A stretch of DNA of 64,000 nt from Nemertoderma westbladi (taxonomy: Eukaryota > Animalia > Xenacoelomorpha): assembly GCA_032718475.1 (NCBI GenBank), contig JAUCBJ010007659.1, forward strand, positions 1 through 64,000. Direction: 5' to 3'. Each line of letters begins with the position of its first letter. The stretch's first letter is position 1. The translations under genes were made by a program, and so were the position numbers. Below, one piece after another: positions 3,133 to 26,723 of the stretch. The notes below the pieces were generated by a model. It was not told the DNA's origin and made no database searches. It worked only from the letters and a program-made list of their open reading frames with translations.

Positions 3133-4484
3133 AGAAACATAATGGAGTGTTTTACTGTGGAAGATCACCCATGATGGTGAACAGGCATTCCTTTAGGAAA
3201 CAGTGGAAGGGGTGTACTGTGGAGGATCACCCATGGTGGTGAACAGGCATTCAATTAGGAAACAGAGTGGAAGGGTTTACTGTGGAAGATCACCCATGAT
3301 GGTGAACAGGCATTCCGTTAGGAAACAGAGTGGAAGGGGTTTACTGTGGAAGATCACCCATGGTGGTGAACAGGCATTCATTTAGGAAACAGAGTGGAAG
3401 GGTTTACTGTGGAAGATCATCCATGGTGGTGAACAGGCATTCATTTAGGAAACAGAGTGGAAGGGTTTACTGTGGAAGATCACCCATGGTGGTGAACAGG
3501 CATTCATTTAGGAAACAGAGTGGAAGGGTTTACTGTGGAAGATCACCCATGATGGTGAACAGGCATTCCGTTAGGAAACAGAGTGGAAGGGTTTACTGTG
3601 GAAGATCACCCATGATGGTGAACAGGCATTCCGTTAGGAAACAGAGTGGAAGGGGTTTACTGTGGAAGATCACCCATGGTGGGGAACAGGCATTCATTTA
3701 GGAAACAGAGTGGAAGGGTTTACTGTGGAAGATCACCAATAATGGTGGTGAACAGGCATTCTTTTAGGAAACAGAGTGGAAGGATTTACTGTGGAAGATC
3801 AACCATGTTGGTGAACAGGCATTTATTTGGGAAACAGAGTGGAAGGGTTTACTGTGGAAGATCACTCATGGGGGGTGAACAGGTATTCCTTTAGGAAACA
3901 GAGTGGAAGGGTTTACTGTGGAAGATCATCCATGGTGGTGAACAGGAATTCCTTTAGGAAACAGAGTGGAAGGGTTTACTGTGGAAGATCACCCATGGTG
4001 GTGAACAGGCATTCATTTAGGAAACAGAGTGGAAGGGTTTACTGTGGAAGATCCTCCATGGTGGTGGACAGACATTCCTTTAGAAACATAGAGGAAGGGT
4101 TTACTGTGGAAAATCACCCATGGTGGTGAACAGGAATTCCTTTAGGAAACAGAGTGGAAGGGTTTACTGTGGAAGATCACCCATGATGGTGAACAGGCAT
4201 TCCGTTAGGAAACAGAGTGGAAGGGTTTACTGTGGAAGATCACCCATGATGGTGAACAGGCATTCCGTTAGGAAACAGAGTGGAAGGGGTTTACTGTGGA
4301 AGATCACCCATGGTGGTGAACAGGCATTCATTTAGGAAACAGAGTGGAAGGGTTTACTGTGGAAGATCACCAATAATGGTGGTGAACAGGCATTATTTTA
4401 GGAAACAGAGTGGAAGGATTTACTGTGGAAGATCAACCATGCTGGTGAACAGGCATTTATTTGGGAAACAGAGTGGAAGGGTTT
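3133..4484 (+). repeat. 63-bp satellite, left part (about 21 units)
   Basis: Unit GGAAACAGAGTGGAAGGGTTTACTGTGGAAGATCACCCATGGTGGTGAACAGGCATTCCTTTA. Confidence 0.95.
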
Positions 4485-4536
4485 TGTTACGGTATATGGC
4501 GCTGTATCCACATTATTAGCCATTATGCAGTATAAT

Positions 4537-4624
4537 ATATTAGTCCGTTATACTGTACGCAATATTAGTCCGTTATACTGTACGCAATATTAGTCCGTTA
4601 TACTGTACGCAATATTAGTCCGTT
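4537..4624 (+). repeat. 25-bp tandem repeat (about 3.5 copies) at the start of the LTR
   Basis: TAGTCCGTTATACTGTACGCAATAT starts at 4541, 4566 and 4591, with a partial copy at 4616. The same array is present in the 3' LTR. Confidence 0.9.
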
Positions 4625-4945
4625 GTGCAGCATAATATTTTAGATAAGGCATAATAGCGCAGTGATATTTAGATAGGGAAATCGAAACGCCCATATATTT
4701 TGAATCCATCCATTTTGTATAGTATGTAGCCCTACCTACGTAATTTTGTAATAGGATATAGGTAGATAGTTCCAGGGTAGCAAGTTTAGTCGGACCCTGG
4801 ATTTTGTGCTTGCTGTTATTAGCTTTGATAGGGCTAGATATAGGGACGCTGTCCTGGCCATTCAGCAGCCAGGGACATGATCCATTACCATATATGGTAA
4901 TAATTTGAGGTTTGGGGAGCAATAGGGCTACAATCCGGCCTCCTT

Positions 4946-5054
4946 ATTGGACTAACTGCTTCCAGGTTGGTCTAATGCTAGCGCGGACTGGAGAGCCAAT
5001 AGGAGAGCGATTGAGTCACCCTATTGCATCACCCCATTCGGATCACCTATAAAT
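4946..5054 (+). promoter_or_regulatory. Putative LTR Pol II promoter (CCAAT boxes and TATA box)
   Basis: ATTGG at 4946, CCAAT at 4996 and TATAAAT at 5048-5054 are spaced as in a typical core promoter. The transcription start is inferred, not observed. Confidence 0.55.
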
Positions 5055-5657
5055 TGGCGGTTTGCCGGTAGAGCTGCACACCCTTACAACCAACCTTAAC
5101 CTCAGTACCAATCTCAATCCTCTGTAGGTGTACAGTTAGAAGTATAATTTTGCGTATTTCTGCAATTTGCTAAATTTTGATTAATTTCTTGAGATGATTT
5201 GCTAGTGCTATTATTCTCGATTGCGTTTCTCAATTAATCCTATCGATTACTGCTAATTACAATCGGAACTATGATTTCTACCCCTTTTGTTAATGGTTCT
5301 ATGTGATTCCTTTCTACGCAATAATCCTAAGGGATTTCTGAGACTGTCAGAATTTGTGATTTTGCATGCGCCGCTACGGTAGCTATTCAATTAAATGAAG
5401 GGCTAAGGTGCCAGTAGGCGGTGGGCGCATCGGGGGGTTGGGCGACTAAGGGAGAGCGGAGGATTCAAAGGCGGGCAACGCTGGCGGGGGTCAACGTTGT
5501 GGTAGGGCAGTTTGGACTGTGAGTTGGAGACCGCTCGCCGGTACAGTAATTAGGGGGCTGATGATCCAAGGTTTTGTCTCTATTTAGTATTAGGGGGGCA
5601 GGAATTGGGTTAGTTAGGAAGCCTAGATGTACCCGGGAGGGGCCTGCATACCTCACA

Positions 5658-5691
5658 GTAAGTAAGTAAGTGGGTAAGTACGTAAGTAAGT
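5658..5691 (+). promoter_or_regulatory. Cluster of six GTAAGT 5' splice-site (U1-binding) motifs in the LTR
   Basis: GTAAGT at 5658, 5662, 5666, 5674, 5682 and 5686. Confidence 0.6.
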
Positions 5692-5916
5692 TGCGAATTA
5701 TATAATTGCAGATTGTATAATTGCAAATCGTGCTATTTGTGATCTGTGATTGCTGACGCTGATTGGTGTGTTACTGAAGTGTGCCTATGATTACGAATGC
5801 TTAGGTAGGCGCCCCTTTTCTTTGATTGATTTCTATTTCTTAGTTACTACAAATAATTACTGATTAGGTCAAAGTAATACGGCAATTTAGGCTATTACTA
5901 GCGAAACCTGTTGTGT

Positions 5917-6099
5917 AATAAATTAGAATTACGCATTCTGGAACTCTTAGTAATTAGTGCGCTGTTACATATTTGTGACTGTAATTGATTAGTAAAATTA
6001 AGAATTAGTACGCAGCATAGCGGAGAGTAGCTAAGGTAATAAATTAGAGTACCGTAAACTATTCACGCTAGGCGGTTATTTGCATTAGCGGGCAATAAA
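5917..6099 (+). terminator. Candidate polyadenylation signals in the LTR
   Basis: AATAAA at 5917, 6038 and 6094, and at the equivalent positions (+16992) in the 3' LTR. Which one is used is unknown. Confidence 0.4.
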
Positions 6100-6736
6100 C
6101 TAGATCGCAATAGTCAGTACGCAAGACACTAGTGAATTGCTGGCCTAAAGCCAGCTGCAGGCAAGTTTAGACCCGGAGTGGTATCACCCACGAAAGACAT
6201 TGTACTGTACCAATTTTGATTATTTTAAATATTCTCGCATTCACACATTCCGTTAGGGAACGCCCAGTATTCGCGGTTAGAAAAGACGTAAGCATTAGTG
6301 TACTTCAATAAGTGGTAAAATTAGGCGTAAGAATACTCTGAGTGCAAAGCCCCTCGCACTCGTCTTAAGTAAGCTTAGGGAGCCGACTCGGGTTTATTGT
6401 TTTGGTTATTCCCGTGTGGCTCATAGATTCGAACAGTTAGCTCTCTATCGAGTGATCGGTAGAGAAAGGAACAAGCGATTTTGCAGGAGTTGTGTAAAAT
6501 TAGTAAAATATATTAGCGGACGGCAGATTAGCGCCATCCAACGGTAAGTAGCGGTTTTGTATTTAGCAGCCTTTACAATTTAGTAATGGCACGCTCCTGA
6601 TCCCCTTTACTTAACAGTAGAGCAGTCTTTGTGTCTTATTGGTTAGGCGAGAGCTCATTAGGTTGGCAGAGAGGTATACGGGTATTTGTCTGTTCAACAG
6701 TTCTGCTGTTAGTATAGGTGTCGCGGTTGTTTATCA

Positions 6737-6748
6737 GTGAGGTATGCA
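6737..6748 (+). promoter_or_regulatory. Primer-binding-site position, non-tRNA type (GTGAGGTATGCA), complementary to LTR 5645-5656
   Basis: Directly abuts the 5' LTR end and lacks the TGG complement of the tRNA CCA end. It is the exact reverse complement of TGCATACCTCAC at 5645-5656 and 22637-22648. Confidence 0.6.
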
Positions 6749-8023
6749 TTGGTTACTGTACTAAGTACTGTACTGCGTACGGTGACGAGTGTATTCTGCA
6801 TTAGATTACTGTATTATTTACTGATACTTCGTATCAGTGAGGTATGTTGCTTGTTTTTTTTATTGGCTGTTGCTTGCAGCAGTCAATAGTGTATTCTTAG
6901 GCTGATTAGTAGTATCACAGTATTAAGTAATAAATTGGAGCACGTGATCGTCTGCTATAGGCTAGCGTACGGTAGAACATTGAGTGTATTCATTTAGGCT
7001 GTTAGTTTAGATTACTGTATTCACTGGTCGCGTACAATAGTACAGTAGTACATTAGGCTGATTGCTGTTACTGCGTACGGTAGAAGGACATTTGTTTGCC
7101 GTACCACATACAGTATTTTTTAGGCTGTTAGGTTGGTGTACTGTTTTACTTACTGTACTGCGTACAGTGGATGTACGGTAGTGCGTTTTTGCTAATTGCG
7201 AATACAGCAGTTCCTTAGGCTTTAGGGCAAATTGTAATTAGTAAGTTTTTTGAAAATTTTAGCTAGGTTTGCGAGAATTCAGTTTCGGTCAAAATTATTT
7301 GTAAAATTCTAGAGTTTTGTACCGGTATGTTAGGTAACCGCTTAGTTATTTTATACCATCTGGAGATACATGGCAAGACGGAACTTCTGAGTTTGGGGTT
7401 CATGTGGGTCTGCGGGTTCGGTTTGCAATCAGCGAAGGGCCTGAATCTTTGGATGCGGACGTGGAATCTCACAGCAAACAAGGTTAGTTGTTCTGTTGGC
7501 ACCATTGTGTTTGTGGAAGCAGTAAAAAATTATCGGTTGTTTAACTGCGAAGCTGAACTCAATTTATTAGTTAGGATATTTAGGTTTAGCCGGCCATGGT
7601 TTTTTGAATCGCTCAAGTTAGAGAGAGAGTTAGAGAGAGTCGCAACCCAAAGATGTAGCCACGCGCTAGTGGATACATATAATATTTGAAATTAAAATTA
7701 CATTGATTAGAGCTATATATAAAATTAGAAATATTCGGGTGGCAAGTTTATTTTGAATATTTTGTATTAGATTCAAAGTTATTTTGTGCTATACCGGTAT
7801 TTAATTGCTATAATAGCTATATAATAATATTTTGTTTAAATATTGTGCTAGTATTTGCTATAACTATACCCCATTAAATTCCCAATATTGCATTGCGAAT
7901 TTATTTGACATTTGGACCAACTGATTATTTGACAAATAATTTGACCGTATTTCGGTTAAATTATAATTATATCTCGAACTTTTGCGAGATATTTTTGCCG
8001 GAAGGCAAAACATTATTTAGACT

Positions 8024-11000
8024 ATGAGTGTCTCAGACAAAGAAGCACTAGAGGACAGCTATGAGACGGCGGCTGGACCGCCGACTGACGATAGCGTAAA
8101 TATTACTGTTGACGACAATGCCGACTATGACGACGCAGCGAGCGACGCTGACGTAAGTGAACAGGAGGACGAGACAGTGACTAGTGAGGAAGAACAACAA
8201 CCTCAAGTAATAGTATTAGGATCCCCTACCGCTACTGTAGGGAAGGATTGTACAGCAACCCAACCAGAGGTGAGTGATAGGGAGGGTAGTGTAGCAGAAG
8301 CGAGAGCCCGGAGCCCGGTTTCCAGACCTGTGGGTATGGTAAGTGCCGTGGTCCCGACGGCTGTAAGGAGTACCCGTAGTTCCCGAAATAATCCTTCAAG
8401 TCCACCGAGTGTGAGTCAGGTAAGCGAGAGAGAACTAGACATCGCGATAAAGAAGAAACTTCGCGCGCATGCCGGACATATAACTCGGACGGCGGACAAG
8501 GTAAGGAAGATGTTAGCTGACTCAGCGAACATCGGGAGGGTAGAGTTAGTAGAGATTAGAAGAGGATATAACTCAGCGTTATTCAAGCAGACGGAGGAGC
8601 TTGCAGTCCTAGCGAAGAAGGCAGTAGAGTCTCAGTCGAGCGACGTGGCGACGAGGATTTACGACAGGGTTTTAGCAGCCTTGTTGGAGCACCACGAGTT
8701 ATCGGAGCGATTCCGACGAGGTAGGACGGAGAACTGGCTGCTATGGGCATCACAAGCGCAGGCGACTCAAGTGAGTGACGCAGCGTTGAGAGACTTAGTG
8801 GAGCGAGAAGAGATCCAAGACAAAGAAGAGCGCCGTTATCAGAGGGAAGTTACTAGCTGGCTGATGCAGAATGGAGTGGTGGTACCGGGTCAGGTGCTAC
8901 CGACGACGGAGAACATTCAACAGAGGACGTTAACTCCACCCGACGATGCATCCAGAGACAGCGGCGATTCCCAGGTTAGTCACGCGCGAGGTAAGGTTAT
9001 ATGTGCTAGATCCCTTGTTTCGCACAACTCGGCGGAGGAGAGAAGACGCCGACTGGACGAACAACAGGCGGAAGTTTTGCGTGCATCGGAAGCACGGAAG
9101 GAAGCCGAGCGGGAACGGGAGCGCACACGTAAGTTGGACGCGGAATTGCGAGAGTTGGAAGAGATAAGTAAGCGCGAGCGAGCGGAACGCGAGCAAAGGG
9201 AACGCGAACTCCAAGCCGAGCGCGTGCGCGAGGAACTCGAACGCGAACAGAGAGAACGCGAACTCCAACTTGAATGCGAACGGGAAGCGAAGAAATGCGA
9301 ACTCCAACTCGAACGCGAACAGGAAGCGAAGAAACGCGAACTCCAAGCCGAACGCGAACGCAAGAAACTCGATCGTGAACAGAAGGAGCGCAAGCTTCAA
9401 CTCGAACGCGGACGCAAGGAACGCGAACTCGAGATCGAAAAAAGAAGACGCGCATTGTATGAAGAAAAGGAGCGTGTGGAAGAAGAGAGCGCAGCGAGAC
9501 GAGCGAGGGAAGAAGAAGAACGTAAACTGGCGCAGTTGGAAAGTGCGAGATTAAGTTTAGAGAGCGAAGAACGGACTAGGAAGGCGAACGAAATCGCCGA
9601 GAAGGGGATGCGAATGATCGAAGAATGTGGGGCGAGTATAGGGACAGAGTTGCGAGAACTGTTCGCACTGCAGAAGGCCGAACAGGAAGCGAGAACTCCG
9701 ACTATACGCGAGTCGACAACAACCAGAATTCCTATACCCGGTCCAGCTATTACGAGTACACGGATCGCTAAACCGTTCTCTACATATCGCACGCCAGTTG
9801 GTATTAGTGCTTCACCCATCGCCCAGGATCCACGTCATCGGAACACCGCTCCTAAACTCGATCGTGAACAGAAGGAGCGCGAGCTTCAACTCGAACGCGC
9901 ACCACTATACACCGCACCACTATACACCGAACGAGAGAACGAAGAATTTAGAGGAGAAATTCCAACGGGACGAGTATTGGGCGAACCGAACCCGCGGGTT
10001 TGGAATACGCGGACGGAGCGCCAACCCAGTTCGACGGAGAACTTCCGGGTTAAACCGGAAGAGGGATCATATGAGAGACATCGGATTACTCAGATAGAGC
10101 CGACTATACAACAGAACCCTAGCCAGGAATTTATTACGAGGGATGAGTTAAGTGCTAGTTTAGCGCAAGCTATATCGCCACACATCCAACCTATAACGGA
10201 CATGCTTAGCAACCTACGGTTAAAGGAAGCAGCCCAGGTAAGAAGTAATTCAAATCCTAGCAGGCCTGAGTCAGATAAAGTCCAGCCTAGTCAACGAGTA
10301 CGCATATCGGAGGAGACTATACCACGTAGACCTCAGGTAAGGACGCCTGTCCCGAATATTCATAATCCCAATTTCGAAAACTCAGCCGAGAAATTTATTG
10401 AGGAAGCTTGGGTCAGGGCCTCGGCACGCAAACCATTGCGAGCACTAAGGACTGACACCGAGTCAAGCGATGAAGAGGAAGACATGAGACGTCAGAAGTC
10501 CCGAAACTATAAGGAAAGAAGGACGGACGCGGAGCAGGTAAGTTTGAACCACCGGGAAAGGAACAGACTTAACAACCCTGCGGAACTAAACCATTTGTTA
10601 ACCCGGAACAACGCAACCCTTAGGGACATAGGTAAGTTTGCTGCTAGGCAAGGACTGCCGACGCAACAACCCCAGAAGTTTATGGGCAACCATAAACACT
10701 GGAGGACCTTCAAAACCTATGTCGACGAGCAGCTAACCAACAGCACCTTTACTCCCAACGAGAAGTTCAACTATTTGCTTCAGATGCTCCATCGAGAACC
10801 TAGAGCCATTGCTGATAACTTCGTCGGCAACGAAAGAGCATTCGAGTTAGCGATGAAGACGCTTAGCAACATCTACGGGAATAAAACGAAGATGGCGCAG
10901 TCGATAGTAGAAGACTTGGGTAAGGGCGGAAGGATTACAACTCCGTTAGAGCTGTTGAACTTAGCGAACGCTATTTCGAACGCATTGGACATCTTGAGGA

Positions 11001-14000
11001 CGGTGAATCTACCTCATCATGGTGATCACGCCGAAGTTTTAAAGAGTGTAATAAGACGTTTAAACATGCGTTATCGACAGAAATGGCGCAAATTAGAGAA
11101 TAAGTTGGAGGGTCAAGGTAAAGTATTGACACTTCAACACATTCATGACATGATAGCCACAGACGCAGTAGCAGAGATGAAATCAAACTTCTCAGAAGAG
11201 AATATGAGAGAGTCTAAACCTGTTACCGGTAAGTCTATGGTAAGTTTTGACGATGACAGGACCACTGTGACATTTAACTCAGTAGACAGATATAATTCGA
11301 ATACCCCAGCCTTTAGATCAGACTCGCGAGTATGGTCAGGTGAGCGGTTAGATAGACCTAGGTTAAAGCAACAGGAGTTGCCGGATGGATTTGTAGGTTG
11401 CCAATACTGTTTACTAAAGGAGGTAAGATCTGATGACCATAAGTTAGATAGTTGCAGACGGTTCAAAGAATTAAATTCGGAACAGAGAAGAGTTCAAGTG
11501 CGGACGTTGGACACCTGTTGGGCATGTCTTGCGCCAGGCCATGTACGGCGGCAGTGCCCGAACAGCAAGGACGGATGCATGGAATGCGGCAGACTACATC
11601 ACAAGTTGCTACATGCGGATTTCCATACCCCAACGGACCGTTACTTACAGCGAAATCCTCAAAGGAAGGGGAGCAAAGAACCCATATCGATAAGGAGGAA
11701 TACGTATACCGGCATTCAGGACGATGGTTACCAACCAGGTTCGTCGGACGAGGATGGCGAGTCGAGCGCGAGAGAAGTGACCTGCCAAGGTTTCACTGCG
11801 GATAGTTTATCGACCAGCGCGCGGACGTATTTATCATCGGCCACGTCGGAAATATTTAGCGTGATTCCGGTGAAACTCACTGGCGATAAGGGATCGAAGC
11901 GAATATATGTGATGTTGGACACTGCGTCCACATTATCTTATATCGACGAGGAAGTGGCGAGAGCTGTTTCTAGCTTCCAGGACGCCGAGGAGATCCAAAT
12001 AGAGTTGAAGTCTATGCATGGGGTAGGAGACCTCAAGGGACACAGAATTTCGGTAGAACGAGACTCCCTACTTCCGAGAGACCAACATACTCGACAAGAA
12101 CGAAAAGCTTTGCCATTGGACGGATTTAAGTGTCTAGCTATGAAGGGATTCGGCAGGCAGTTAGGTAAGGTGCCACCGATGAGTCCCATAGCACAGGAGT
12201 ATTTTGACAAGCTCAGGATACCCAGACACCAGGTAGGTTATAGGAATGTTTCTATGTTGATTGGTGCAGAACAGCTGATCGCACACCAGATATGGGAAAC
12301 GAGACCAGCTGAGCCGCATGTCAATGGACCACATGCCCATAGGACCATACTAGGTTGGTATACACGAGTACCCATGTCTTATGAGTTTACAGGTGGCGAC
12401 AAGCCGATGGACAGATACGACGAATTACAGCCTATAACTCAACCACCGTTAGTAAAACCACCAGACATAGACGAGTTTAGGAGAACCTGTATTGACCACT
12501 ATAGTGACTTTAGCGAGTCAGACGAGGAGTTGATTCCCGATAATGTTAGGTTGTCGGAACCACTTCATAACGACCGGACAGATAGTGAACCCGAGGACTA
12601 CTGTCATCAGACCCGTGGGTCTGGTTCAGCGGCCCACGCTACCTATTTGACTAACGTTTCGACTTATACAGACATAGTGGAGGGTCAAGTGGCTAAATAT
12701 CGAGACCTAGACATTTTCCAATACAGTGAGGAGGAATTACAGAAGGAATTGATACGCCAGGACCTCGAGACAGGAGCCAGAACCGTCGAATGGCTGGATA
12801 GGGACGCAATGGAACCCGGTGGATATGACCTAGCCATGTCCACTGACGAGAAACGGTCGCTGGAGATGATGGAAGATACCATACGTCTGCTACCGACAGG
12901 ACATTTTGAAGTTGGAATGTTGTGGCGTCGACAACCACCTAAGTTGGAGAACAACTACAACTTAGCCTTGAAAAGATTAAACGGAGTAAGGGCTCGGTTG
13001 TTGAATAATCCGGACATTAGGGAGAAGTATTGCGCCCAGATCAACAACTATTTTGCCAAGGGATTTGCTGGGAAGGTAGAGGACCCTGACTTAGTGACAG
13101 ACCAGACTTATTACCTTCCACACCACTATGTGACTCACCCTGACAAGCCAGACAAAGTCCGAGTAGTCAACGACTGCGCAGCAGTCTATAGAGGTATGTC
13201 CCTGAATTCAGAGTTGATGGATGGTCCCAACCTGAACAACTATTTGATTGGAATATTGTTGCGTTTTAGACAGCAGCGATTCGCATTTACTTGTGACATC
13301 GAGGCGATGTTCCACCAGGTAAGAGCCTGTAAGGCAGACCATGATAGCCTTCGCTTTCTCTGGTATGAGAATGAAGACTTATCCGGCCCAGTGGTTACAT
13401 ACCAGATGTACGTTAGGATATTTGGCGCCCGCGATAGTCCAAATGGCACGCTGTTTGTTCTAAAGAAAACGGCAACAGCCCAGATTGGTAAGTACCCAGT
13501 AGAGGTTATCGAGTCCATCTTGAGAAACTTCTACATGGACGACGGATTGGTGTCCAAGGACACGGCGGAACAAGCCATAGAAGGGGCTCACGGCCTGCAA
13601 GAGTGCTTGGCTACAGGGGGTTTTCCTCTGACCAAGTTCACTACAAACTCGGAGGCCCTATTAGAGTCGTTCCCAGTGAAAGATCGCGGGAGCGGAGACA
13701 TAGAATTGGGGGTAGAACCAATCCCCATGGCGCGAGTACTGGGACTCGCTTGGAACCCGAACTCAGACAAGTTCCAGGTAAGAGTTAGATTTGAGCCCAG
13801 TAGCCCAGACAAAGTTTTGACAAAGAGGATTTGCTTATCGACATTAAGTAGACTATTTGACCCGATGAACTTTATCAGTCCGGTTATATTACAGGCACGA
13901 GCGTGCATGAGGAAAATTTGGTTGTCCGACATAGAGTGGGACGAACCAATATCTCCTATACATGCAAAGCAGTGGAGGGAGTGGGAAGCCGAGTTACATC

Positions 14001-16507
14001 TATTGAAAAACATAGATGTACCCCGTTCCTACTTTCCGAATCAGCTGGTATTTCCAGCTGATCTCGAACTCCACCTATTTAGTGACGCAAGTGACACCGG
14101 CTTTGGTATGGTAGCCTACCTTCGCCGAGAGGTAAGTCAGGACAAATTTGAGACGGCCTTTGTGACTTCTAGATCAAAGACAATGCCAGTCAAATACATG
14201 ACTGTCCCTCGTGCAGAGTTACAGGCGGCTGTAGTTTCAGTCGAGGTAAGTAAGCAAATAACTGAGGAGTTAGACACGACATTGACCTTATTCTATTGGA
14301 CGGACGCATCCTTGGTGTTAGTATACATTGCGGCCGACAATATTGCACTAAAGACATTTGTGGCCAACAGACGCGCTCAGATCGTTGATTTTTCGACGAA
14401 GGAACAATGGAGACATTGTCCGGGAGTGTTAAACCCGGCCAACATAACTTCGAGAGGTGCAATGCCGGCGGAATTCTGTCAGGAAGAGTCGCAGGAGTTT
14501 TGGTTGCATGGACCTGATTTTCTAACGAGGACACAGGAACATTGGCCAGAGCGACTAAAGATTGTGACCAATCCGATGCCTGAAGATGCAGAAGTCAAAG
14601 TGGAGAAAGTCTCTAAGTCAAAGTCTAAAGCCAAACTTAAGTCATTGGAGCGGCCTGAAGAGTCATTGGAGCGGCCTGAAGAGTCATTGGAGCGGCCCGG
14701 AGACCTGTCAGACCAACAGACTTACGTGACTACTAGGTCCGGAAGGGTAAGTTATGATGTAAAACCACCCTTACAGACTAAACCGGAGTCACAATTGGTA
14801 AGTGACGGACAGAAAATGACTGACACAATGGATCCTTTGGTTTCCAAACCTGCGGGTTTGGATTAGAAACTTCCATTAATTAGCGGACAACCGTCGCTGG
14901 CATTAGAATCATGCAGTGTTTATGACAAATTACTAAATTCGTCTGCCTCTTGGCTGACAATTTGTAAAAGAACTGCGTGGTTAAACCGATACATTTCGTA
15001 CCTTTGTTTAAAACATTCGGAACATTTAGGAGAACCATCGAGCGCTAATAGTGAGCGAATTCAGAAATTGAAACAACCTCTGACAGAGGATGAGATTGAT
15101 CAAGCGGAATTAAAGCATTTGAAGCATTATCAAATGTGTGCCTTCCCTAAAGAATTCCATCTATTATCAGCTCAACGACCAGTTCTCTATAAACCCCTTA
15201 GAAAATGGAGTCCATTAATCCATAAGGGTTTGATTTGTCATAGATCGAGAATCCAGACTGTCGACATAAACTCACAGTTTCGGTTCCCAGTGATAATCCC
15301 TAGTCACCCAATAGAATTGCAAAGAGCGATTCTATGGGATATACACAAGAGGTTGGATCACGCGGGAAAGTTACACTGTTTGTCGGCAGCGAGACAGCGA
15401 TTCATTCTATTGCAGCCAAGCAGGGCAGTAGGCACTATGTACGACGCCTGTCTGGTTTGCAAGAGAGTGAACGCCAGAGTATTGGAACAGGAGATGGCTG
15501 AACTCCCGGAAGCGAGAGTGCAGGCATATGACCCACCCTTTACGAACACAGGGGTGGACTGTTTTGGTCTGATTGAGGCAAAGAGTGGACGGCTGACCCA
15601 CAAGCGATGGGGTCTGCTGCTGACATGTATGGCTAGTAGAGCCATACATATCGAGCGTGTGGCAGACATGTCGACCAAATCTCTGCTCCTGGCCTTGAAG
15701 AGATTTATGGCCAGGAGAGGACTAGTATAGGCGTTCTATTCCGATAAGGGTACAAACTTTGTCGGAGGGAATAGCGAGTTGAACGCCGCTCATAAAGCGG
15801 CACAGAATAAGGAAATTTCTGCAGCACTTTTGCCGCAACGAGTAGAGTGGAGATTTAATACTCCAGAAAGTCCTTGGAGAGGAGGAAGTTGGGAGCGTTT
15901 AGTTCGCTCTGTAAAGCAGGCCATTGCCAAAACATTGCCTGTGAACAAACAACTTACCGACGACGAACTGGTCACAGCTTTCATCGAAATCGAGCATACA
16001 TTAAACTCGAGGCCGATAGCTATGTTGCCAGACGGTGTTGCATTAACGCCGAATCATTTGCTAATGCAGAGTCCAGCATTTCTTGTGCCGGCATCAGAAC
16101 CCATTAGTGCCGACCTATATAGTCGTAAAAGCTGGAAGGTGACTCAATTAGTGGCGTACACATTCTGGGAATATTGGCGGGAATACTATCTTCCCACCAT
16201 ATCTACCAGAACAAAGTGGTACAAAACGGTTCGGAGTCTCCAAAGGGGAGATTACGTATTGATAACCGAGCCGATTGTCAAGAGAAAGTATTGGGAGACT
16301 GGAGTGATCTTGCACACACACCCAGACGTGCAAAACATAGTGCGCACAGTCACTGTGAAAATTAGGTGCAAGTGTCCACACCCAAAAAAGTGTAAAACTA
16401 ATGGTTTGCACACCTTGGACCGACCGGTCCAAGATATTGTGTTATTAGAGGAGACACGTATCGAGACGGGAGATTATAATTTGTCTCCTGCCTCAAAACA
16501 GAATTAG
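8024..16507 (+). CDS. BEL/Pao Gag-Pol polyprotein (coiled coil, Gag, 3 Cys/His motifs, protease, RT, RNase H, integrase) interrupted by two in-frame TAG codons
   Basis: ORFs 8024-14866, 15068-15730 and 15779-16507 share one frame. The sequence across the TAGs at 14864 and 15728 stays pol-like (SSASWLTICKRTAWLNRY; RRGLV*AFYSDKGTNFVGG). Motifs: Gag KFMGNHKHWRTF...EKFNYL; CQYC..H..C, CWAC..H..C, CMECGRLHHKLLH; protease LDTAS; RT FYMDD; RNase H FSDAS/RAEL/WTDAS; integrase H..H..CLVC, VDCFG, SDKGTNF, WERL. Confidence 0.93.
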
Positions 16508-17197
16508 TGTTGGACGCAACTCACTTCGTATGCATTCCTCGTATGCAGATACAAGGAAATGCATAGGAGCGGGTTGTGGTGATTTGCGTTGAGTTTTGTC
16601 TGGTGGGCATCAAAACAAAATTTTATTTTCAAAAATTTTTGGAAAATTAAAAAATTTTAAAATTAGAAGTAAACCCAAGACAATTCCAAACGCTGTGTAT
16701 AGACGCGTTTTAGAATTCGTCTATAGATAAACAGTAATTTGAAAGTCGTGAAGCCTGGAAAATAGCATTTAGAAACCATGGTGACGGCTATATTACGTAG
16801 GAGTGTAAATTGAGTTTAGCAACTTCCACAGATTGGTGCCAACAGTGCAACTAAGGTGCTAAAGGTTAGTAGCACCAGAGGCGTACATGGACCCCACTCA
16901 GTAGTTTGCAGTGATGTGTGATGTTCGATTATCAAACCTGTGGGTTTGGTATAGTCGAGTATTGTGGCTATAGTCCTTTCTAACTACTGTAGTTTAGTAC
17001 GAGTAATGGGAGTAGTTTGGGCATCAAAAAGTGAGTTGGTCACGGCCAGTTTATCTCCAAAGTTTTTGCGCTATGCATGGGAATAGGTTAGAGGTTAGTT
17101 AGTTAGGAAGAGACGGGATCTAGAGAGTCGAACCTGAACTGCTGGAAAGCGGGGGGGGGGGGGGGGGGGGTTCGGGAGGTCTGTCTTTCGGCAACAT

Positions 17198-17216
17198 CTA
17201 ACTGATTTACCCACAG
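17198..17216 (+). promoter_or_regulatory. Putative branch point and 3' splice acceptor for a subgenomic ORF2 mRNA
   Basis: CTAAC at 17198-17202 followed by TGATTTACCCACAG (AG at 17215-17216), 60 nt upstream of the ORF2 ATG. Confidence 0.45.
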
Positions 17217-17275
17217 TGTAATTGGTTACGTAACGGCACTTATTGGGATATATATATGTATATACGCGAGGCATA

Positions 17276-20200
17276 ATGGAGAAGGATATTAGAGCGCAAC
17301 CGCGCAGAGGATTTACTGCCAGAGAGGAGGCGGAGCTACCATTCGCGCGACCAGGATGTAAAGACTCTAACGTTTACTACCATGGGCGGTCCGTGATGGA
17401 GCTAAACGGAAAATACAAACCGACTTACGATAAGGAATTACGGAGGGAAAGAATGAGAGCGTTGGGGGACTGGATGGAAGTTTTGCGGAGAGAGTATCGC
17501 ACTCGGTATCCCTACGACTTCGCTTTGGACGTATGTGACATTAGTGCAGACCCGGATGAGGAGATCGCACGACTGTACCATATGAATATGTATTTACGAC
17601 ACGAAGAACCTCTACCTGCAGTCCGAGATCAGTTCGACGGAATGCATCTGTACCGGAGGACTCGAGGCGAGGATCAGGAGACGCCGAAAGTCTTCAGCGT
17701 GTACAAGCTGTTCTACAAGTGTGGTGAATGCATGAATAAGCAAGACGTGGCGATTCCCGACCGACTAGACGAGCAACATCCAGAACCGATATTAACGCGA
17801 TGTCCAGCTCACCAGTTCCTTAGATACAACGAGGGAGGTTACCCGATGAGCAACCCGATGATCAGTATCGACTTCAGCGGAAAGCGACCTCCGAGACCCA
17901 TTACGCCGACCGTTACGACATTAGATCCGTATACGGAGATTAAACCCTGTTCGACACCCAGTTTGATAGAGACGGCAGCGGCCATTTCGCTGTACCGAGC
18001 CTATAAGGATCTAGAGGCGCGGCGCGAAGCGGCACGGGACTCGGGTACCAAACCCGCGGGTTTGGAGCTCTCGAGTCCCTGGACTGCGTTTACTTCACCT
18101 CACCGAGCGAGAAGCCTCACGCCTGAGCATCAGGACGACATAGACGCGTTGCGGCAGGAGGAGCGAGCGGCGAAGGCGAAAGAGTTATTTGAGAATAGGA
18201 TAGCGGAGTATAATAAGGCCGCGGATAGACATCAAGAGGAGACGAGGAGAGTGACCGGATTTGTTCCACAGGTCGTATCTCAACCCCGACCGGTGTATTA
18301 TTCCGACGGCACCGAACCTGCGATATTAGTAGATCATCCGGAGTCGCGAGAAGCGATACGATTCTTGCCGATGGTAAGAATGGCGGATCATTGGAACGTT
18401 GACTGTCTACGGGAAGTTTTATGCGCGAAGTTCTTGCGTGATGTCCCAATGCAGATCACAGATTACGACACATTGGATAAGATTGGAGCTCCGGGGAAGG
18501 AGAGCAAATTATTTGGATGGTTGGATAAGTACATCAAGGTATGGGTCGCGGTGGCTACATTCCCAGACGACGAGGAGGTAGACCAGACGTGGCTGAGGAG
18601 GAAGGGTTCTTATACCCGATATGATGACCACAAGGCTATCGAGCGCATGTGGACCCCATCAGACGAGATTCAGCGTCAGTGGAGGAAAACGGAGGAATCA
18701 CTGCAGGATTGGAGGGTGATGTTCTACGACAATGAAGGAGGGTCCCATCAGGAATGTTTGACCAGCAAGTGTATTCAAATTCGTGCAGCCGATGGTGTGA
18801 CTCATGTGTTTATGCGTGTGAGGGCGGATCGAGAGAGACCGGAGCCCATCATAACGACACAATATCGGAAAGGGAAGGATCCTAGGGAGCAGATTTTGGA
18901 GGTATGCAGGCGAGGAGGTATGCACGGAGCGGAGCGTATCGACGCCAGGATGCTACCCAAGAAAGTTAGAGAGGCTATTCTCAACCAAGATTACGTCAAG
19001 GTGGGATCGGGAGTCCAGAGCGATTTGGAGAGCGACTTCAACGCCATGACTGATCTGGAAGATAGATTGCCGAGACCGTTTGTCGACACCAAGCTATTGT
19101 TGCTATGGGCACAGGATATTGGAATTTATAGGGAGTATCCCAACTCTGCCAAGACTGGTATGGGCTTTATAGCACACTTGTTGTATAATTGGGACTTTAA
19201 GTTAAAGACGCAGAAGAAGTACGAGGAGGCGTATGGCGAATACAACACGCCACCGGGAGCGGAGTTCAAATCCCACTTCAAGCGGCAAGCGTTAGTGTAT
19301 TGGAACATTTGCGCGCCACCCCGTGCGTCGCTACAATATTATTTGGTGCTTGAGTCGAACACGGTGACTTGTTTATTAGCGGATATCGTTGCGCGAGTTT
19401 TGAAGCGTCATCCATTGGTATTCGGAGGAGATCAATACGTTCGCTCGAAAGGGGGAATCCAATCCGACGTGATGAAGCGTTTCTTAACCCCGTTCTTCAA
19501 CCAATCGTTAGAGAATACGTCGATGGTTAGGAGAGGATTAGCGATATTCCAAGGAGTATATCGACAGAACATCGGAGATTTGGGAGACCGACCGTCGATG
19601 GAGTATCCGACGCCAGAGGCTTTGGAGAAGTGGTTCGGGAATCAAACCCGCGGGTTTGGTACTCCCTTCCACTCGGAGGCTGATAGACCTGTTAAGGAGG
19701 GCTGGCCGGAGACGTTAGTAGAGGTGTTCGGAGTAGATCTTCCGGTGGAGAAGACATATCCGAAACGAACGCGGGAGGAAATATTGGAGATAGAGGACAA
19801 GGGCGAGGATGTTTACTTTGTTCCGGATCGACAACCGCTGACCGGAGAGGACGACATCGTATTAGACATTGGGAAAGAAGGAAGTGCGAAACCGATTGGA
19901 GACCTCATATACGAGAGGGCCTGGTTTCCACAAGCGCGTAGGTGCAAGTTGTGCGGCAGCACAAGGCACAATCTAAAGTCGTGCGACGCGGTAGTAGAGG
20001 CGGCGCATAAGGTCTGTCGTTGGTGTAATGAGACCGACCATTCGTTTCACACGTGCACCGTCTTCATTTCTCAATGTGGATATTGTGGGGTAAAGGGACA
20101 TCGTAGCGCGAGATGTCAGCTGCGAGATGATTCCTTCCAAAACCATAGCGCTAACCTACTTCGGGAGATGTTAGATAAGTGGGAGAGTGTGGCTGACTAC

Positions 20201-20878
20201 CATATTCAAGCGCAGATGCGTTGGTTACCATTCAAGGCGGGGTATGGATTTTGGGCGGTAGACCCATCACATGTTGCGTACGAGCCATATCTACAGTCGC
20301 TACCACAATATCAGGAACTCATCCTAACTGCTCAAGACCTTCCACAAAACACTGGAGTTATCGTAGTCCGAGAATACTTCAGACAGTTGAATATGGATAA
20401 TAAGTACACCTGGAACTTCGTTGCTATTTGCGATCGAATCACGAAGGGTGTATTTTCGGAGACTAGAAAAGTGGTACGCGCGCGAGGTGATTGGAGAATG
20501 GCGGCTATACAATACCGCAACGAATTCTTGTTGACTCATGTGCCAGTGGGTTCATTGACCGCTGAGAGGATACAGGAGCAGAGGATCGCAGCGACCACAG
20601 CGACGACCGCTGGAGCTCAAGGCTCGCGGAAAGAACCAGGAGGAGGGGTCCAAGACAAGCGTCAAGTCAAGGACGACCACTATCACTCTATTATAGAAGC
20701 ACAGCGGTTGCAGCGCAAGGCGCAGGGAGCGTCAGAGAAGGCGCGTGTGCAACTGCATAAGGAAGAGTTGGCGGAAGCGACCACGGGAGCACGACAATTG
20801 GGACGAGGCCCGAGGGAGAAGCACGAGCCGGGAATCTGTCGGGGCTCAGGGAGCATCGTCTCCGGTTCCGGGGAGTGA
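17276..20878 (+). CDS. Retrotransposon ORF2 (about 1200 aa): DEDDy/WRN-like 3'-5' exonuclease domain plus three CCHC zinc knuckles
   Basis: Uninterrupted ORF between pol and the 3' LTR, first in-frame ATG at 17276. ExoI-like VMFYDNEG, then CIQI; ExoII-like LPKKVREAILNQDYVKVGSGVQSD; FVDT; KTGMGFIAHLLY; ExoIII-like YWN...P...LQYYLVLE. Knuckles: CKLCGSTRHNLKSC, CRWCNETDHSFHTC, CGYCGVKGHRSARC. Confidence 0.85.
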   Translation: MEKDIRAQPRRGFTAREEAELPFARPGCKDSNVYYHGRSVMELNGKYKPTYDKELRRERMRALGDWMEVLRREYRTRYPYDFALDVCDISADPDEEIARLYHMNMYLRHEEPLPAVRDQFDGMHLYRRTRGEDQETPKVFSVYKLFYKCGECMNKQDVAIPDRLDEQHPEPILTRCPAHQFLRYNEGGYPMSNPMISIDFSGKRPPRPITPTVTTLDPYTEIKPCSTPSLIETAAAISLYRAYKDLEARREAARDSGTKPAGLELSSPWTAFTSPHRARSLTPEHQDDIDALRQEERAAKAKELFENRIAEYNKAADRHQEETRRVTGFVPQVVSQPRPVYYSDGTEPAILVDHPESREAIRFLPMVRMADHWNVDCLREVLCAKFLRDVPMQITDYDTLDKIGAPGKESKLFGWLDKYIKVWVAVATFPDDEEVDQTWLRRKGSYTRYDDHKAIERMWTPSDEIQRQWRKTEESLQDWRVMFYDNEGGSHQECLTSKCIQIRAADGVTHVFMRVRADRERPEPIITTQYRKGKDPREQILEVCRRGGMHGAERIDARMLPKKVREAILNQDYVKVGSGVQSDLESDFNAMTDLEDRLPRPFVDTKLLLLWAQDIGIYREYPNSAKTGMGFIAHLLYNWDFKLKTQKKYEEAYGEYNTPPGAEFKSHFKRQALVYWNICAPPRASLQYYLVLESNTVTCLLADIVARVLKRHPLVFGGDQYVRSKGGIQSDVMKRFLTPFFNQSLENTSMVRRGLAIFQGVYRQNIGDLGDRPSMEYPTPEALEKWFGNQTRGFGTPFHSEADRPVKEGWPETLVEVFGVDLPVEKTYPKRTREEILEIEDKGEDVYFVPDRQPLTGEDDIVLDIGKEGSAKPIGDLIYERAWFPQARRCKLCGSTRHNLKSCDAVVEAAHKVCRWCNETDHSFHTCTVFISQCGYCGVKGHRSARCQLRDDSFQNHSANLLREMLDKWESVADYHIQAQMRWLPFKAGYGFWAVDPSHVAYEPYLQSLPQYQELILTAQDLPQNTGVIVVREYFRQLNMDNKYTWNFVAICDRITKGVFSETRKVVRARGDWRMAAIQYRNEFLLTHVPVGSLTAERIQEQRIAATTATTAGAQGSRKEPGGGVQDKRQVKDDHYHSIIEAQRLQRKAQGASEKARVQLHKEELAEATTGARQLGRGPREKHEPGICRGSGSIVSGSGE

Positions 20879-21476
20879 CGCCTTACGGACGCCGTCAACA
20901 GAGTCTACAGGAGGTAGACTGGTGTATCTGGGCAGGGGGCGAAAGAGAGGAGCGAGCCCGAAGAACCCAGGAGCGGGTCGATAATGCATCGTAGCACAGG
21001 GCGACAGACTCTAGATATATACATCATCGTCGCTCTGATGTATATTGTAGCATTTAGAAATATTCGACTAGACTCATATACACTAGTTGCGCTGTTTTGA
21101 ATTTATATTATGAGAAAGGCGAAGGAAGTGATTGGGGAGACAAACCTGCGGGTTTGGCTTACTCCTTTCACTTGCCCTAGCAAAATTTTTTATATTTGAT
21201 CTTGTATGTAGTAATCATTATGTAGTACGAACGAGAAACAATATTTTGTAAATTTAATTTGTATGTAATTATCGTTAAACAGTAAGAGAGATAATATTTG
21301 TAAATTTAATTTGTATGCAATTCATTATGCAATATCTATAGCAATATTTTGTAAATAGTAGGATTTATAGTATCAAGTATTTAGATTATTTGGAAGAAAT
21401 TTATTTTGTTTTGTATACATCACCTTATACTCTTCTACAGTTGGAGGGAAACATTATATGATTTCCCTTGGAGCGG

Positions 21477-23728
21477 TGTTACGGTATATGGCGCTGTATC
21501 CACATTATTAGCCATTATGCAGTATAATATATTAGTCCGTTATACTGTACGCAATATTAGTCCGTTATACTGTACGCAATATTAGTCCGTTATACTGTAC
21601 GCAATATTAGTCCGTTGTGCAGCATAATATTTTAGATAAGGCATAATAGCGCAGTGATATTTAGATAGGGAAATCGAAACGCCCATATATTTTGAATCCA
21701 TCCATTTTGTATAGTATGTAGCCCTACCTACGTAATTTTGTATTAGGATATAGGTAGATAGTTCCAGGGTAGCAAGTTTAGTCGGACCCTGGATTTTGTG
21801 CTTGCTGTTATTAGCTTTGATAGGGCTAGATATAGGGACGCTGTCCTGGCCATTCAGCAGCCAGGGACATGATCCATTACCATATATGGTAATAATTTGA
21901 GGTTTGGGGAGCAATAGGGCTACAATCCGGCCTCCTTATTGGACTAACTGCTTCCAGGTTGGTCTAATGCTAGCGCGGACTGGAGAGCCAATAGGAGAGC
22001 GATTGAGTCACCCTATTGCATCACCCCATTCGGATCACCTATAAATTGGCGGTTTGCCGGTAGAGCTGCACACCCTTACAACCAACCTTAACCTCAGTAC
22101 CAATCTCAATCCTCTGTAGGTGTACAGTTAGAAGTATAATTTTGCGTATTTCTGCAATTTACTAAATTTTGATTAATTTCTTGAGATGATTTGCTAGTGC
22201 TATTATTCTCGATTGTGTTTCTCAATTAATCCTATCGATTACTGCTAATTACAATCGGAACTATGATTTCTACCCCTTTTGTTAATGGTTCTATGTGATT
22301 CCTTTCTACGCAATAATCCTAAGGGATTTCTGAGACTGTCAGACTTTGTGATTTTGCATGCGCCGCTACGGTAGCTATTCAATTAAATGAAGGGCTAAGG
22401 TGCCAGTAGGCGGTGGGCGCATCGGGGGGTTGGGCGACTAAGGGAGAGCGGAGGATTCAAAGGCGGGCAACGCTGGCGGGGGTCAACGTTGTGGTCGGGC
22501 AGTTTGGACTGTGAGTTGGAGACCGCTCGCCGGTACAGTAATTAGGGGGCTGATGATCCAAGGTTTTGTCTCTATTTAGTATTAGGGGGGCAGGAATTGG
22601 GTTAGTTAGGAAGCCTAGATGTACCCGGGAGGGGCCTGCATACCTCACAGTAAGTAAGTAAGTGGGTAAGTACGTAAGTAAGTTGCGAATTATATAATTG
22701 CAGATTGTATAATTGCAAATCGTGCTATTTGTGATCTGTGATTGCTGACGCTGATTGGTGTGTTACTGAAGTGTGCCTATGATTACGAATGCTTAGGTAG
22801 GCGCCCCTTTTCTTTGATTGATTTCTATTTCTTAGTTACTACAAATAATTACTGATTAGGTCAAAGTAATACGGCAATTTAGGCTATTACTAGCGAAACC
22901 TGTTGTGTAATAAATTAGAATTACGCATTCTGGAACTCTTAGTAATTAGTGCGCTGTTACATATTTGTGACTGTAATTGATTAGTAAAATTAAGAATTAG
23001 TACGCAGCATAGCGGAGAGTAGCTAAGGTAATAAATTAGAGTACCGTAAACTATTCACGCTAGGCGGTTATTTGCATTAGCGGGCAATAAACTAGATCGC
23101 AATAGTCAGTACGCAAGACATTAGTGAATTGCTGGCCTAAAGCCAGCTGCAGGCAAGTTTAGACCCGGAGTGGTATCACCCACGAAAGACATTGTACTGT
23201 ACCAATTTTGATTATTTTAAATATTCTCGCATTCACACATTCCGTTAGGGAACGCCCAGTATTCGCGGTTAGAAAAGACGTAAGCATTAGTGTACTTCAA
23301 TAAGTGGTAAAATTAGGCGTAAGAATACTCTGAGTGCAAAGCCCCTCGCACTCGTCTTAAGTAAGCTTAGGGAGCCGACTCGGGTTTATTGTTTTGGTTA
23401 TTCCCGCGTGGCTCATAGATTCGAACAGTTAGCTCTCTATCGAGCGATCGGTAGAGAAAGGAACAAGCGATTTTGCAGGAGTTGTGTAAAATTAGTAAAA
23501 TATATTAGCGGACGGCAGATTAGCGCCATCCAACGGTAAGTAGCGGTTTTGTATTTAGCAGCCTTTACAATTTAGTAATGGCACGCTCCTGATCCCCTTT
23601 ACTTAACAGTAGAGCAGTCTTTGTGTCTTATTGGTTAGGCGAGAGCTCATTAGGTTGGCAGAGAGGTATACGGGTATTTGTCTGTTCAACAGTTCTGCTG
23701 TTAGTATAGGTGTCGCGGTTGTTTATCA
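21477..23728 (+). repeat. 3' LTR (2252 bp)
   Basis: Direct copy of 4485-6736, followed by the TSD GGTTT. Confidence 0.97.
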
Positions 23729-25738
23729 GGTTTACTGTGGAAGATCACTCATGGGGGGTGAACAGGTATTCCTTTAGGAAACAGAGTGGAAGGGTTTACT
23801 GTGGAAGATCATCCATGGTGGTGAACAGGAATTCCTTTAGGAAACAGAGTGGAAGGGTTTACTGTGGAAGATCACCCATGGTGGTGAACAGGCATTCATT
23901 TAGGAAACAGAGTGGAAGGGTTTACTGTGGAAGATCATCCATGGTGGTGGACAGACATTCCTTTAGAAACATAGAGGAAGGGTTTACTGTGGAAAATCAC
24001 CCATGGTGGTGAACAGGAATTCCTTTAGGAAACCGAGTGGAAGGGTTTACTGAGGAAGATCACCAATGGTGGTGAACAGGCATTACTTTGGGAAATAGAG
24101 TGGAAGGGTTTACTGTGGAAGATCACCCATGGTGGTGAACAGGCATTACTTTGGGAAACAGAGTGGAAGGGTTTACTGTGGAAGATCACCAATAATGGTG
24201 GTGAACAGGCATTCCTTTAGGAAACAGAGTGGAAGGGTTTACTGTGGAAGATCACCAATGGTGGTGAACAGGCATTACTTTGGGAAACAGAGTGGAAGGG
24301 TTTACTGTGGAAGATCACCAATGGTGGTGAACAGGCATTACTTTGGGAAACAGAGTGGAAGGGTTTACTGTGGAAGATCACCCCTGGTGGTGGACAGGCA
24401 TTACTTTTGGAAACAGAGTTGAAGGGTTTACTGTGGAAGATCACCCCTGGTGGTGGACAGGCATTACTTTTGGAAACAGAGTTGAAGGGTTTACTGTGGA
24501 AGATCATCCATGGTGGTGGACAGACATTCCTTTAGAAACATAGAGGAAGGGTTTACTGTGGAAAATCACCCATGGTGGTGAACAGGAATTCCTTTAGGAA
24601 ACCGAGTGGAATGGTTTACTGAGGAAGATCACCAATGGTGGTGAACAGGCATTACTTTGGGAAATAGAGTGGAAGGGTTTACTGTGGAAGATCACCCATG
24701 GTGGTGAACAGGTATTCCTTTAGGAAACAGAGTGGAAGGGTTTACTGTGGAAGATCATCCATGGTGGTGAACAGGAATTCCTTTAGGAAACAGAGTGGAA
24801 GGGTTTACTGTGGAAGATCACCCATGGTGGTGAACAGGCATTCATTTAGGAAACAGAGTGGAAGGGTTTACTGTGGAAGATCATCCATGGTGGTGGACAG
24901 ACATTCCTTTAGAAACATAGAGGAAGGGTTTACTGTGGAAAATCACCCATGGTGGTGAACAGGAATTCCTTTAGGAAACCGAGTGGAAGGGTTTACTGAG
25001 GAAGATCACCAATGGTGGTGAACAGGCATTACTTTGGGAAATAGAGTGGAAGGGTTTACTGTGGAAGATCACCCATGGTGGTGAACAGGCATTACTTTGG
25101 GAAACAGAGTGGAAGGGTTTACTGTGGAAGATCACCAATAATGGTGGTGAACAGGCATTACTTTGGGAAATAGAGTGGAAGGGTTTACTGTGGAAGATCA
25201 CCCATGGTGGTGAACAGGCATTACTTTGGGAAACAGAGTGGAAGGGTTTACTGTGGAAGATCACCAATAATGGTGGTGAACAGGCATTCCTTTAGGAAAC
25301 AGAGTGGAAGGGTTTACTGTGGAAGATCACCCCTGGTGGTGGACAGGCATTACTTTTGGAAACAGAGTTGAAGGGTTTACTGTGGAAGATCACCAATAAT
25401 GGTGGTGAACAGGCATTCCTTTAGGAAACAGAGTGGAAGGGTTTACTGTGGAAGATCACCAATGGTGGTGAACAGGCATTACTTTGGGAAACAGAGTGGA
25501 AGGGTTTACTGTGGAAGATCACCAATGGTGGTGAACAGGCATTACTTTGGGAAACAGAGTGGAAGGGTTTACTGTGGAAGACCACCCCTGGTGGTGGACA
25601 GGCATTACTTTTGGAAACAGAGTTGAAGGGTTTACTGTGGAAGATCACCAATGGTGGTGAACAGGCATTACTTTGGGAAACAGAGTTGAAGGGTTTACTG
25701 TGGAAGATCACCAATGGTGGTGAACAGGCATTCCTTTG
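23729..25738 (+). repeat. 63-bp satellite, right part (about 32 units)
   Basis: The same unit continues after the 3' LTR. Confidence 0.95.
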
Positions 25739-26723
25739 GCTTAACAAGCCTAAAAGTTTCTCCCATTCAATATACTAAAATCCCACAAGGAACCAACCGA
25801 GAGGCATATTCCCCAGAAACCCAAACAAATACAATATGTGCCATGGTAAGACTCTGGGGTTACTTGTAAGAGAGGAGATCTTTGCATCTTCCAATTCAAT
25901 TTTATAATATTATTTAAATTAATTATTTTATGTGCTATAAAGTTTATATAAGCGTTTACTAGGAGGTAATACAGTATCTAACTAGTCAGTGATGTGGACG
26001 ATGACTGCTACAGTATGTTGAATTTGGTATTGTACTTTTGCCCCATACAATGATTCCATAGAAGGATTAATTAGAGAGTTAATTAAGGGATATGAAAGCG
26101 GAATATAAGGTTAGTAAGATAATTCAGTGGTGAAATAATACCGAAGGTTGAAATACCGGATAATTTCGATATTTACAGATAATTTATGCGCAATGTGTTT
26201 TCCAGCTGATTTTATTATTATATTGCCAATAATTTTGAAGCAGTTGTTTCAGTTAACGTAGCAGAATGGATTTTGATTGGATGGGTGAACTGATGCCTAG
26301 TAATATTTAAAATTATGATATATTTGGTTTCTTCAAATATAAGTTTATTTCAGCAATAATAAATATAATGTAAAGTGTGAAAACTCCATCTTCCCTTTTC
26401 TTCACAATGCAATGCGATATTCTCATTGGTTAGACATTACGGTTGGTCGAATTATACATCATTCCCTTTGTTCTTGTAGAAGTATATTAAAATGCTACAT
26501 ACTGTAAATGAAGGCAAAATATAGATTTACAATATTTACTACTGCCAATAATATAATTTACTAACAATGTTTATGTTTTAAAAGTAAATGTTCACTTCGT
26601 GAACGTTATATAATATTTAACAAAAATAATTATAGTTTTGATGTTGTTTTGCCTAAAGTGTCCCTTTACCCATATTTGGTAAAATATTATTCAATTCGGA
26701 TATACTTAATATTTTTAAACAGT

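Follow-up and report, generated by a model that had tools for sequence, protein, structure and literature searches.

The window, by which we mean the whole 64,000-nucleotide stretch of Nemertoderma westbladi DNA analysed here, is eukaryotic and rich in satellites. Inside a 63-bp satellite sits a BEL/Pao retrotransposon at 4485-23728 (19,244 bp, about 19.2 kb; features are on the forward strand unless stated otherwise). Its LTRs (4485-6736 and 21477-23728) measure 2252 bp each, have TG...CA ends and differ from one another at 8 positions; a short purine-rich tract (21470-21476) lies ahead of the 3′ LTR, and the 5-bp target-site duplication GGTTT flanks the element on both sides (4480-4484 and 23729-23733). 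It is a young and unusually large member of its group.

The gag-pol reading frame (8021-14866) contains a zinc knuckle at 11516, the protease motif DTAS at 11918, the reverse transcriptase (RT) motif YMDD at 13532 and the RNase H motif FSDAS at 14072, and ends in TAG. The integrase region (14867-16507) shares this frame and is broken by a stop within its core (15728-15730). The pol frame has three in-frame stops (14864, 15728 and 16505), each a TAG that may reflect mutation or read-through. Four Pfam families match above cut-off (PF03564, PF05380, PF17921 and PF18701), which together with the motif order gives a domain order PR-RT-RH-IN of the Pao type. Every RT homologue among the matches listed carries PF05380; the closest are 42% identical, and the named ones come from molluscs, a coral, echinoderms, a tunicate and a ribbon worm. 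A quick tree of 36 RT rows, built without named reference clades, places the element on a long branch that joins no supported group. Pfam found no chromodomain in the element, the RT profile gave no match among solved structures, and scans of viral contigs yielded no relative. Judged by sequence, the element is placed in BEL/Pao and is not a member of Tf1/sushi.

An extra frame downstream of pol (17234-20878) encodes 1200 amino acids from its first ATG at 17276; with an acceptor-like site ending at 17216, it may be made from spliced RNA. It contains three CCHC zinc knuckles (19943-20116) and a region faintly resembling DEDD-type 3′-5′ exonucleases (18722-19357). Atlas linked the whole frame to PF01612, 3′-5′ exonucleases (0.86), and residues 460-720 to the same family in 24 of 30 matches at 0.91, and by eye a D-x-E and later acidic motifs fit such an enzyme. 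The last DEDD motif usually has Asp, and Glu stands there in this frame. An exonuclease was not detected with Pfam, NCBIfam, PDB sequences or a small profile, one of whose seven rows was a wrong stretch. Two single-sequence folds reached a pLDDT of 33-35, too low to be of use, and homologue searches with the frame found none. An exonuclease-like function is weakly suggested.

A 16-nt near-palindrome, CAAACCYGYGGGTTTG, recurs with at most 2 mismatches at 8323, 9987, 12608, 14845, 16933, 18049, 19643 and 21141. These eight sites, against a chance mean of 0.06 matches, all fall within the element at spacings of 1.1-2.6 kb and occur in three reading frames as well as in two parts without coding sequence; the TAG at 14864 lies 3 nt past one of them. 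The core of the motif is absent from the relatives' loci that were fetched. It is possibly a packaging, dimerisation or protein-binding signal.

Elsewhere in the window, satellite arrays with periods of 63, 31, 18, 36 and 24 bp occupy 3151-4484, 23729-25739, 33671-37125, 26724-28213, 28442-29123, 39092-41904 and 52081-62009. Between 39.8 and 41.9 kb, translated repeats produce Pfam matches to cuticle and PRY families that look spurious. A fragment on the reverse strand with an RVT_1 match (48786-49922) lies beside three identical 350-bp repeats (49560-50595).

The site behind the 5′ LTR and its complement

Directly behind the 5′ LTR, positions 6737-6748 read GTGAGGTATGCA, and the exact reverse complement of these 12 bases is found at 5645-5656 and, in the 3′ LTR, at 22637-22648. 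The match begins at the first base past the LTR (offset 0). The first-pass annotation had described this complementarity with its edge at the LTR boundary, and our analysis of the LTRs and of the match confirms it. It had also claimed that a tRNA primer-binding site is missing. This holds, since the nearest TGG lies 13 bases beyond the 5′ LTR and nothing within the element matches tRNA genes or Rfam families. A self-encoded tRNA-like primer such as that of the nematode element Cer7 was likewise not seen in these searches. The 12-mer also resembles the U1 5′ end, the let-7 seed and a tRNA-Val half, presumably just in part. We therefore treat 6737-6748 as a candidate primer-binding position of a non-tRNA type and 5645-5656, with its 3′ LTR copy, as the candidate self-primer.

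From the composition of the LTR, a 12-base match has a chance of 5.6e-5 at offset 0 and of 3.4e-4 over offsets 0-5; the first-pass annotation had given approximately 1e-4. Just 3 of 14,740 internal positions (6737 and 18899/18900) are complementary to the LTR over at least 12 bases. The duplex of primer and site has a computed energy of -19.7 kcal/mol. In the available sections of PMC6317226, predicted self-primers are defined by at least 10 complementary bases at an offset of 0-5; the 12 bases at offset 0 satisfy this definition.

Several further complementarities and repeats were observed in the element. Within the extra frame, 13 bases at 18899-18911 are complementary to 5642-5654, an LTR spot shared with the primer; one such 13-mer is expected somewhere by chance, and its overlap with the primer spot may be chance or not. 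Positions 7146-7156 are complementary to 5655-5665. Short words recur in the leader (6732-7160), some of them at intervals of about 100 nt, and a periodicity scan gave no period above threshold. Among these words is a second copy of the LTR end and primer site at 6832-6847, in which 15 nt (6832-6846) are identical, comprising the LTR end plus 10 bases of the site, and which forms 11 pairs with the primer, one of them G-U. The word GTTAGTTAGGAAG occurs at 5609-5621, 24 nt before the primer, and again at 17098-17110 upstream of the extra frame, and is a possible shared promoter word. In contigs of one sequencing run (X1), related copies stop short of the primer site, and near the primer just simple-repeat pieces are found.

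The surroundings of the primer also carry signals for transcription and splicing. The best TATA-like word of the LTR, TATAAA at 5048-5053, is a putative promoter 597 bases upstream of the 12-mer, close to the approximately 590 nt given before. Six GTAAGT splice-donor-like words span 5658-5691, so that the contiguous 12-mer ends one base short of the cluster, whose run of GTAA could be a simple repeat. With the donor at 5658 and a pyrimidine-rich acceptor ending at 5843, a 186-nt LTR intron is predicted, and the first AATAAA past it follows at 5917-5922, 74 nt after the acceptor. Two related ideas were rejected. A primer built by splicing reaches at best 9 nt in this element, a value equalled by 14 of 30 shuffles. 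Masking of the primer by the intron start, with an opening cost of 8.8 unspliced versus 0.7 spliced, was equalled in 67 of 300 shuffles and 11 of 222 LTR stretches and is not significant. The donor cluster, the second site copy, the BEL/Pao identity, the link to splicing and the extra frame all go beyond the first-pass annotation.

Distant relatives and their sites

Scans with a six-sequence RT alignment yielded 92 loci (from the first scan, the best 80 of 484). No flanking repeat was present at 54 of them, and at 15 the repeat did not give the 5′ LTR end; the 23 readable loci include 5 duplicates, leaving 18 relatives. Three LTR ends among the readable loci were shifted by hand by 1-2 bases to end in CA. 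Complements were also sought across predicted splice junctions, using canonical-looking donors and pyrimidine-rich acceptors, with a strict filter to which one donor word was added after locus L006 had been seen.

In 14 of the 18 relatives listed, at about 40% RT identity, the post-LTR site has a self-complement of 10-15 nt in its own LTR. It is contiguous in one (L020) and lies across a predicted LTR splice junction in the other 13. In cross-element controls 10 nt were reached in 4 of 340 pairs and never exceeded. Measured from the LTR end, the match begins at 0-4 nt in each of these 14 and in the present element. The site sequence differs from family to family and is matched by the family's own LTR each time, which is what a recopied self-primer would give. 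Between L084 and L085 a two-base compensatory change, CAC/GTG to TAA/TTA, affects both sides; these are sister families, which, along with the donor word added after L006, makes the independent count a little lower.

The signature is lacking in L010 and L016, which have ordinary TGG sites, in L021, where 11 nt of self-complement appear under a looser filter only, and in L071, whose LTR is short and perhaps incomplete; one of the 18 has neither TGG nor self-complement. Covariation in related elements had been named beforehand as a check on self-priming, and relatives with an ordinary TGG site as evidence against it. The first is supported by L084/L085 and by the 14 self-complements, in relatives that are distant (at most 42% identity); the second applies to 2 of 18, against the 14 with a self-complement. 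L006 shows, at its positions 55-70, a TGG one base after the LTR together with a 10-nt spliced self-complement, and is a possible intermediate. Twelve of the contigs encoding a BEL/Pao RT (L081-L092) belong to prokaryote genome assemblies and are likely animal DNA binned with prokaryotes.

The layout of the relatives resembles that of the present element. An A(A/T)TAAA follows the acceptor within 8-106 nt in 12 of 14 spliced relatives, comparable to the order of candidate intron and AATAAA here. The candidate intron beginning at 5658 is probably the counterpart of the last LTR intron, which interrupts the primer in the relatives; in the present element its donor falls one base beyond the primer. 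A TATA-like word was found 25-35 nt before the primer in 0 of 15 relatives and 49-338 nt before it in 6 of 15, so an internal primer looks usual among them. Combined with the TATA-like word 597 nt upstream, this layout points to a primer that is internal in the present transcript rather than at its start. A second primer site, sought in the leaders of 17 relatives, did not exceed 8 nt in any.

A candidate route of self-priming and its alternatives

We consider it likely that the element primes its own reverse transcription, by whatever route. The claim had been made before; it is what we infer here, with support from the 14 of 18 relatives and the L084/L085 covariation. As to the route, a primer end cut by the element's RNase H at the edge of the pairing, as in Tf1, has in our view a little better than an even chance. 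The LTR transcript would carry 5645-5656 internally, and this stretch of the element's own RNA would pair with 6737-6748. A cut after 5656, at the duplex edge and probably by the element's RNase H, would then leave a 3′-OH, from which minus-strand DNA could run back through U5 and R and be transferred to the 3′ end by means of the sequence that reaches as far as the poly(A) site. Recopying of the primer at a later stage would regenerate the site, which would account for both the perfect match and the covariation. RNase H motifs are present in an open frame. Internal cleavage had earlier been set apart as not the simple Tf1 route, a distinction that does not hold as worded: according to the accessible text of PMC7175516, the first 11 bases of Tf1 anneal to the site, and the cut made by RNase H falls between bases 11 and 12.

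RNA folding was used to explore the pairing. In RNAs from 5645 to 6760 or 6800 the helix of primer and site has a probability of about 1, which falls to 0.26 when the RNA begins at 5600 and to 0 when 6900 is included or the start is at 5078. The predicted folding is unstable and depends on the RNA ends chosen, which counts against the proposed route. The site is predicted to be held in a local hairpin with an opening cost of 14.6 kcal/mol versus 7.6 for the second copy, and in modelled spliced RNAs the primer pairs with this second copy and not with the primer site, which also counts against it. Flanking duplexes of the Tf1 type are no better than in shuffles, 34 of 40 and 26 of 40 of which pair as well or better, and an 8-pair helix (5658-5665/6727-6734) forms in some folds only. 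A further counterargument is the 580-nt 5′ tail: only with transcription starting near 5645 would it be explained why plus-strand copying stops after 12 bases. The distance of the relatives and the element's long, unplaced branch in the tree also weigh against the route.

The most serious alternative, which we still regard as unlikely, keeps self-priming and draws the 3′ end from another source: step one of splicing at 5658, or a short polyadenylated LTR RNA acting in trans, trimmed as far as the edge of the duplex by a 3′-5′ exonuclease, possibly the product of the extra frame. The donor one base past the primer fits this idea, as do the exonuclease-like region and zinc knuckles described above, and DEDDy proteins of rotifer LTR elements have been proposed to process the 3′ ends of element RNA (PMC5408684, available text). 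However, the distance from integrase to 3′ LTR is below 500 nt in 16 of 17 measurable relatives, which leaves no room for the extra frame, so the signature requires no extra nuclease. In the relatives the primer extends 3-8 nt past the junction into the following exon, and step one of splicing cannot make such an end. The failed searches for an exonuclease, the low pLDDT, the Glu in the last motif and the possibility that the GTAA run is a simple repeat weigh on the same side. A specific version combining host splicing with the element's own nuclease, in which the spliceosome would cut at 5657/5658, the freed exon would pair and the exonuclease would remove one overhanging base, seems doubtful to us; if true, it would describe a retrotransposon carrying a dedicated primer-maturation enzyme.

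Outside self-priming, it is improbable that the pairing serves as an RNA structure with a regulatory role, such as masking the donor-like words at 6737-6748 so that full-length RNA survives, with priming by something else. Donor-like words do occur in the site (GTGAGG at 6737, GAG/GTATG at 6742), a stronger donor lies in the second copy at 6842, and the folds switch between the two sites. Yet such a structure leaves unexplained why the match starts 0-4 nt from the LTR end in 14 relatives and here, and why a tRNA-type site is missing. Slightly more improbable is a primer derived from a host RNA, such as a half tRNA or another small RNA with the 12-mer at its end, the LTR copy then being captured or due to chance. 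Half-tRNA primers occur in Copia lineages (PMC6317226, sections available), and in the ICTV account the family primes with host tRNA (PMC8742986), but a shared host RNA would not give sites that differ per relative and match each one's own LTR, nor does the element hold a tRNA or Rfam match. A chance match in a long LTR is very remote: the spot at 18899 reaches 13 bases by apparent chance, but the probability at the position that matters (about 6e-5 to 3e-4) and the recurrence in relatives speak against it.

Comparison with known priming systems

BEL/Pao is a major group of animal retrotransposons in which the use of host tRNA is assumed and not shown (PMC8742986). If a member of this group does make its own primer, in connection with a splice site in the LTR, tRNA-free priming would have one more origin, splicing would act as a mobility switch, and elements in which no primer site is detectable would be accounted for. 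The present copy would represent a deep branch with the primer ending next to the junction rather than crossing it, a layout that helps to separate the reading that splicing builds the primer from the one that splicing positions or frees it. In the literature covered by our searches, which takes in few subscription journals or Repbase reports, no report of BEL/Pao self-priming was found in the text available. PMC3118150 does not mention primers, PMC8220671 mentions them generically, and the 'self-priming' of bioRxiv 10.1101/2022.10.17.512609 refers to siRNA production and is irrelevant here.

According to the ICTV, Belpaoviridae have an 18-nt site matching a host tRNA-Arg or Gly at its 3′ end, LTRs of 0.2-1.2 kb and genomes of 4.2-10 kb; the profile states host tRNA priming and calls replication poorly understood (PMC8742986). 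The present element shares with this family the Pao-type order PR-RT-RH-IN, the TG...CA LTRs and the 5-bp target duplication, but differs in having no tRNA site, 2.25-kb LTRs, a length of 19.2 kb and an extra frame that is not env. The missing tRNA site and the length lower the fit to the ICTV description and not the placement in BEL/Pao.

Regarding the extra frame, the nearest parallel is the DEDDy ORF3 of the rotifer LTR elements Juno and Vesta, likewise an additional 3′ frame resembling a 3′-5′ exonuclease. The present frame differs in its 1200 amino acids, three CCHC knuckles and weak assignment, and the available part of the rotifer study shows no link to priming (PMC5408684).

In Tf1/sushi self-priming itself has been described; for Tcn1 and TAR it is a prediction (PMC6317226, PMC7175516, PMC5341516, PMC2864245, PMC3601003, PMC5445492 and bioRxiv 10.1101/2022.12.06.519325, as far as their accessible text goes). 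Tcn1 (gypsy) and the plant elements TAR/Houba/Osr-1 (copia) are predicted self-primers under the same sequence criterion (PMC6317226); they belong to other superfamilies and hosts, and the sections available describe no link to splicing. The closest likeness is to Tf1/Tf2 and the Tf1/sushi group of Ty3/gypsy chromoviruses, where a post-LTR site is complementary to an LTR stretch of 11-12 bases and a tRNA site is missing. In Tf1 the primer end arises by an internal cut (PMC7175516, available text), as we infer here. The present element differs from this group in its BEL/Pao membership, in a primer that is probably internal and not at the cap, and in the adjoining splice donor, and the two flanking 'pretzel' duplexes of Tf1 (available text of bioRxiv 10.1101/2022.12.06.519325) find no support in it. 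In the way it primes, the element probably resembles Tf1.
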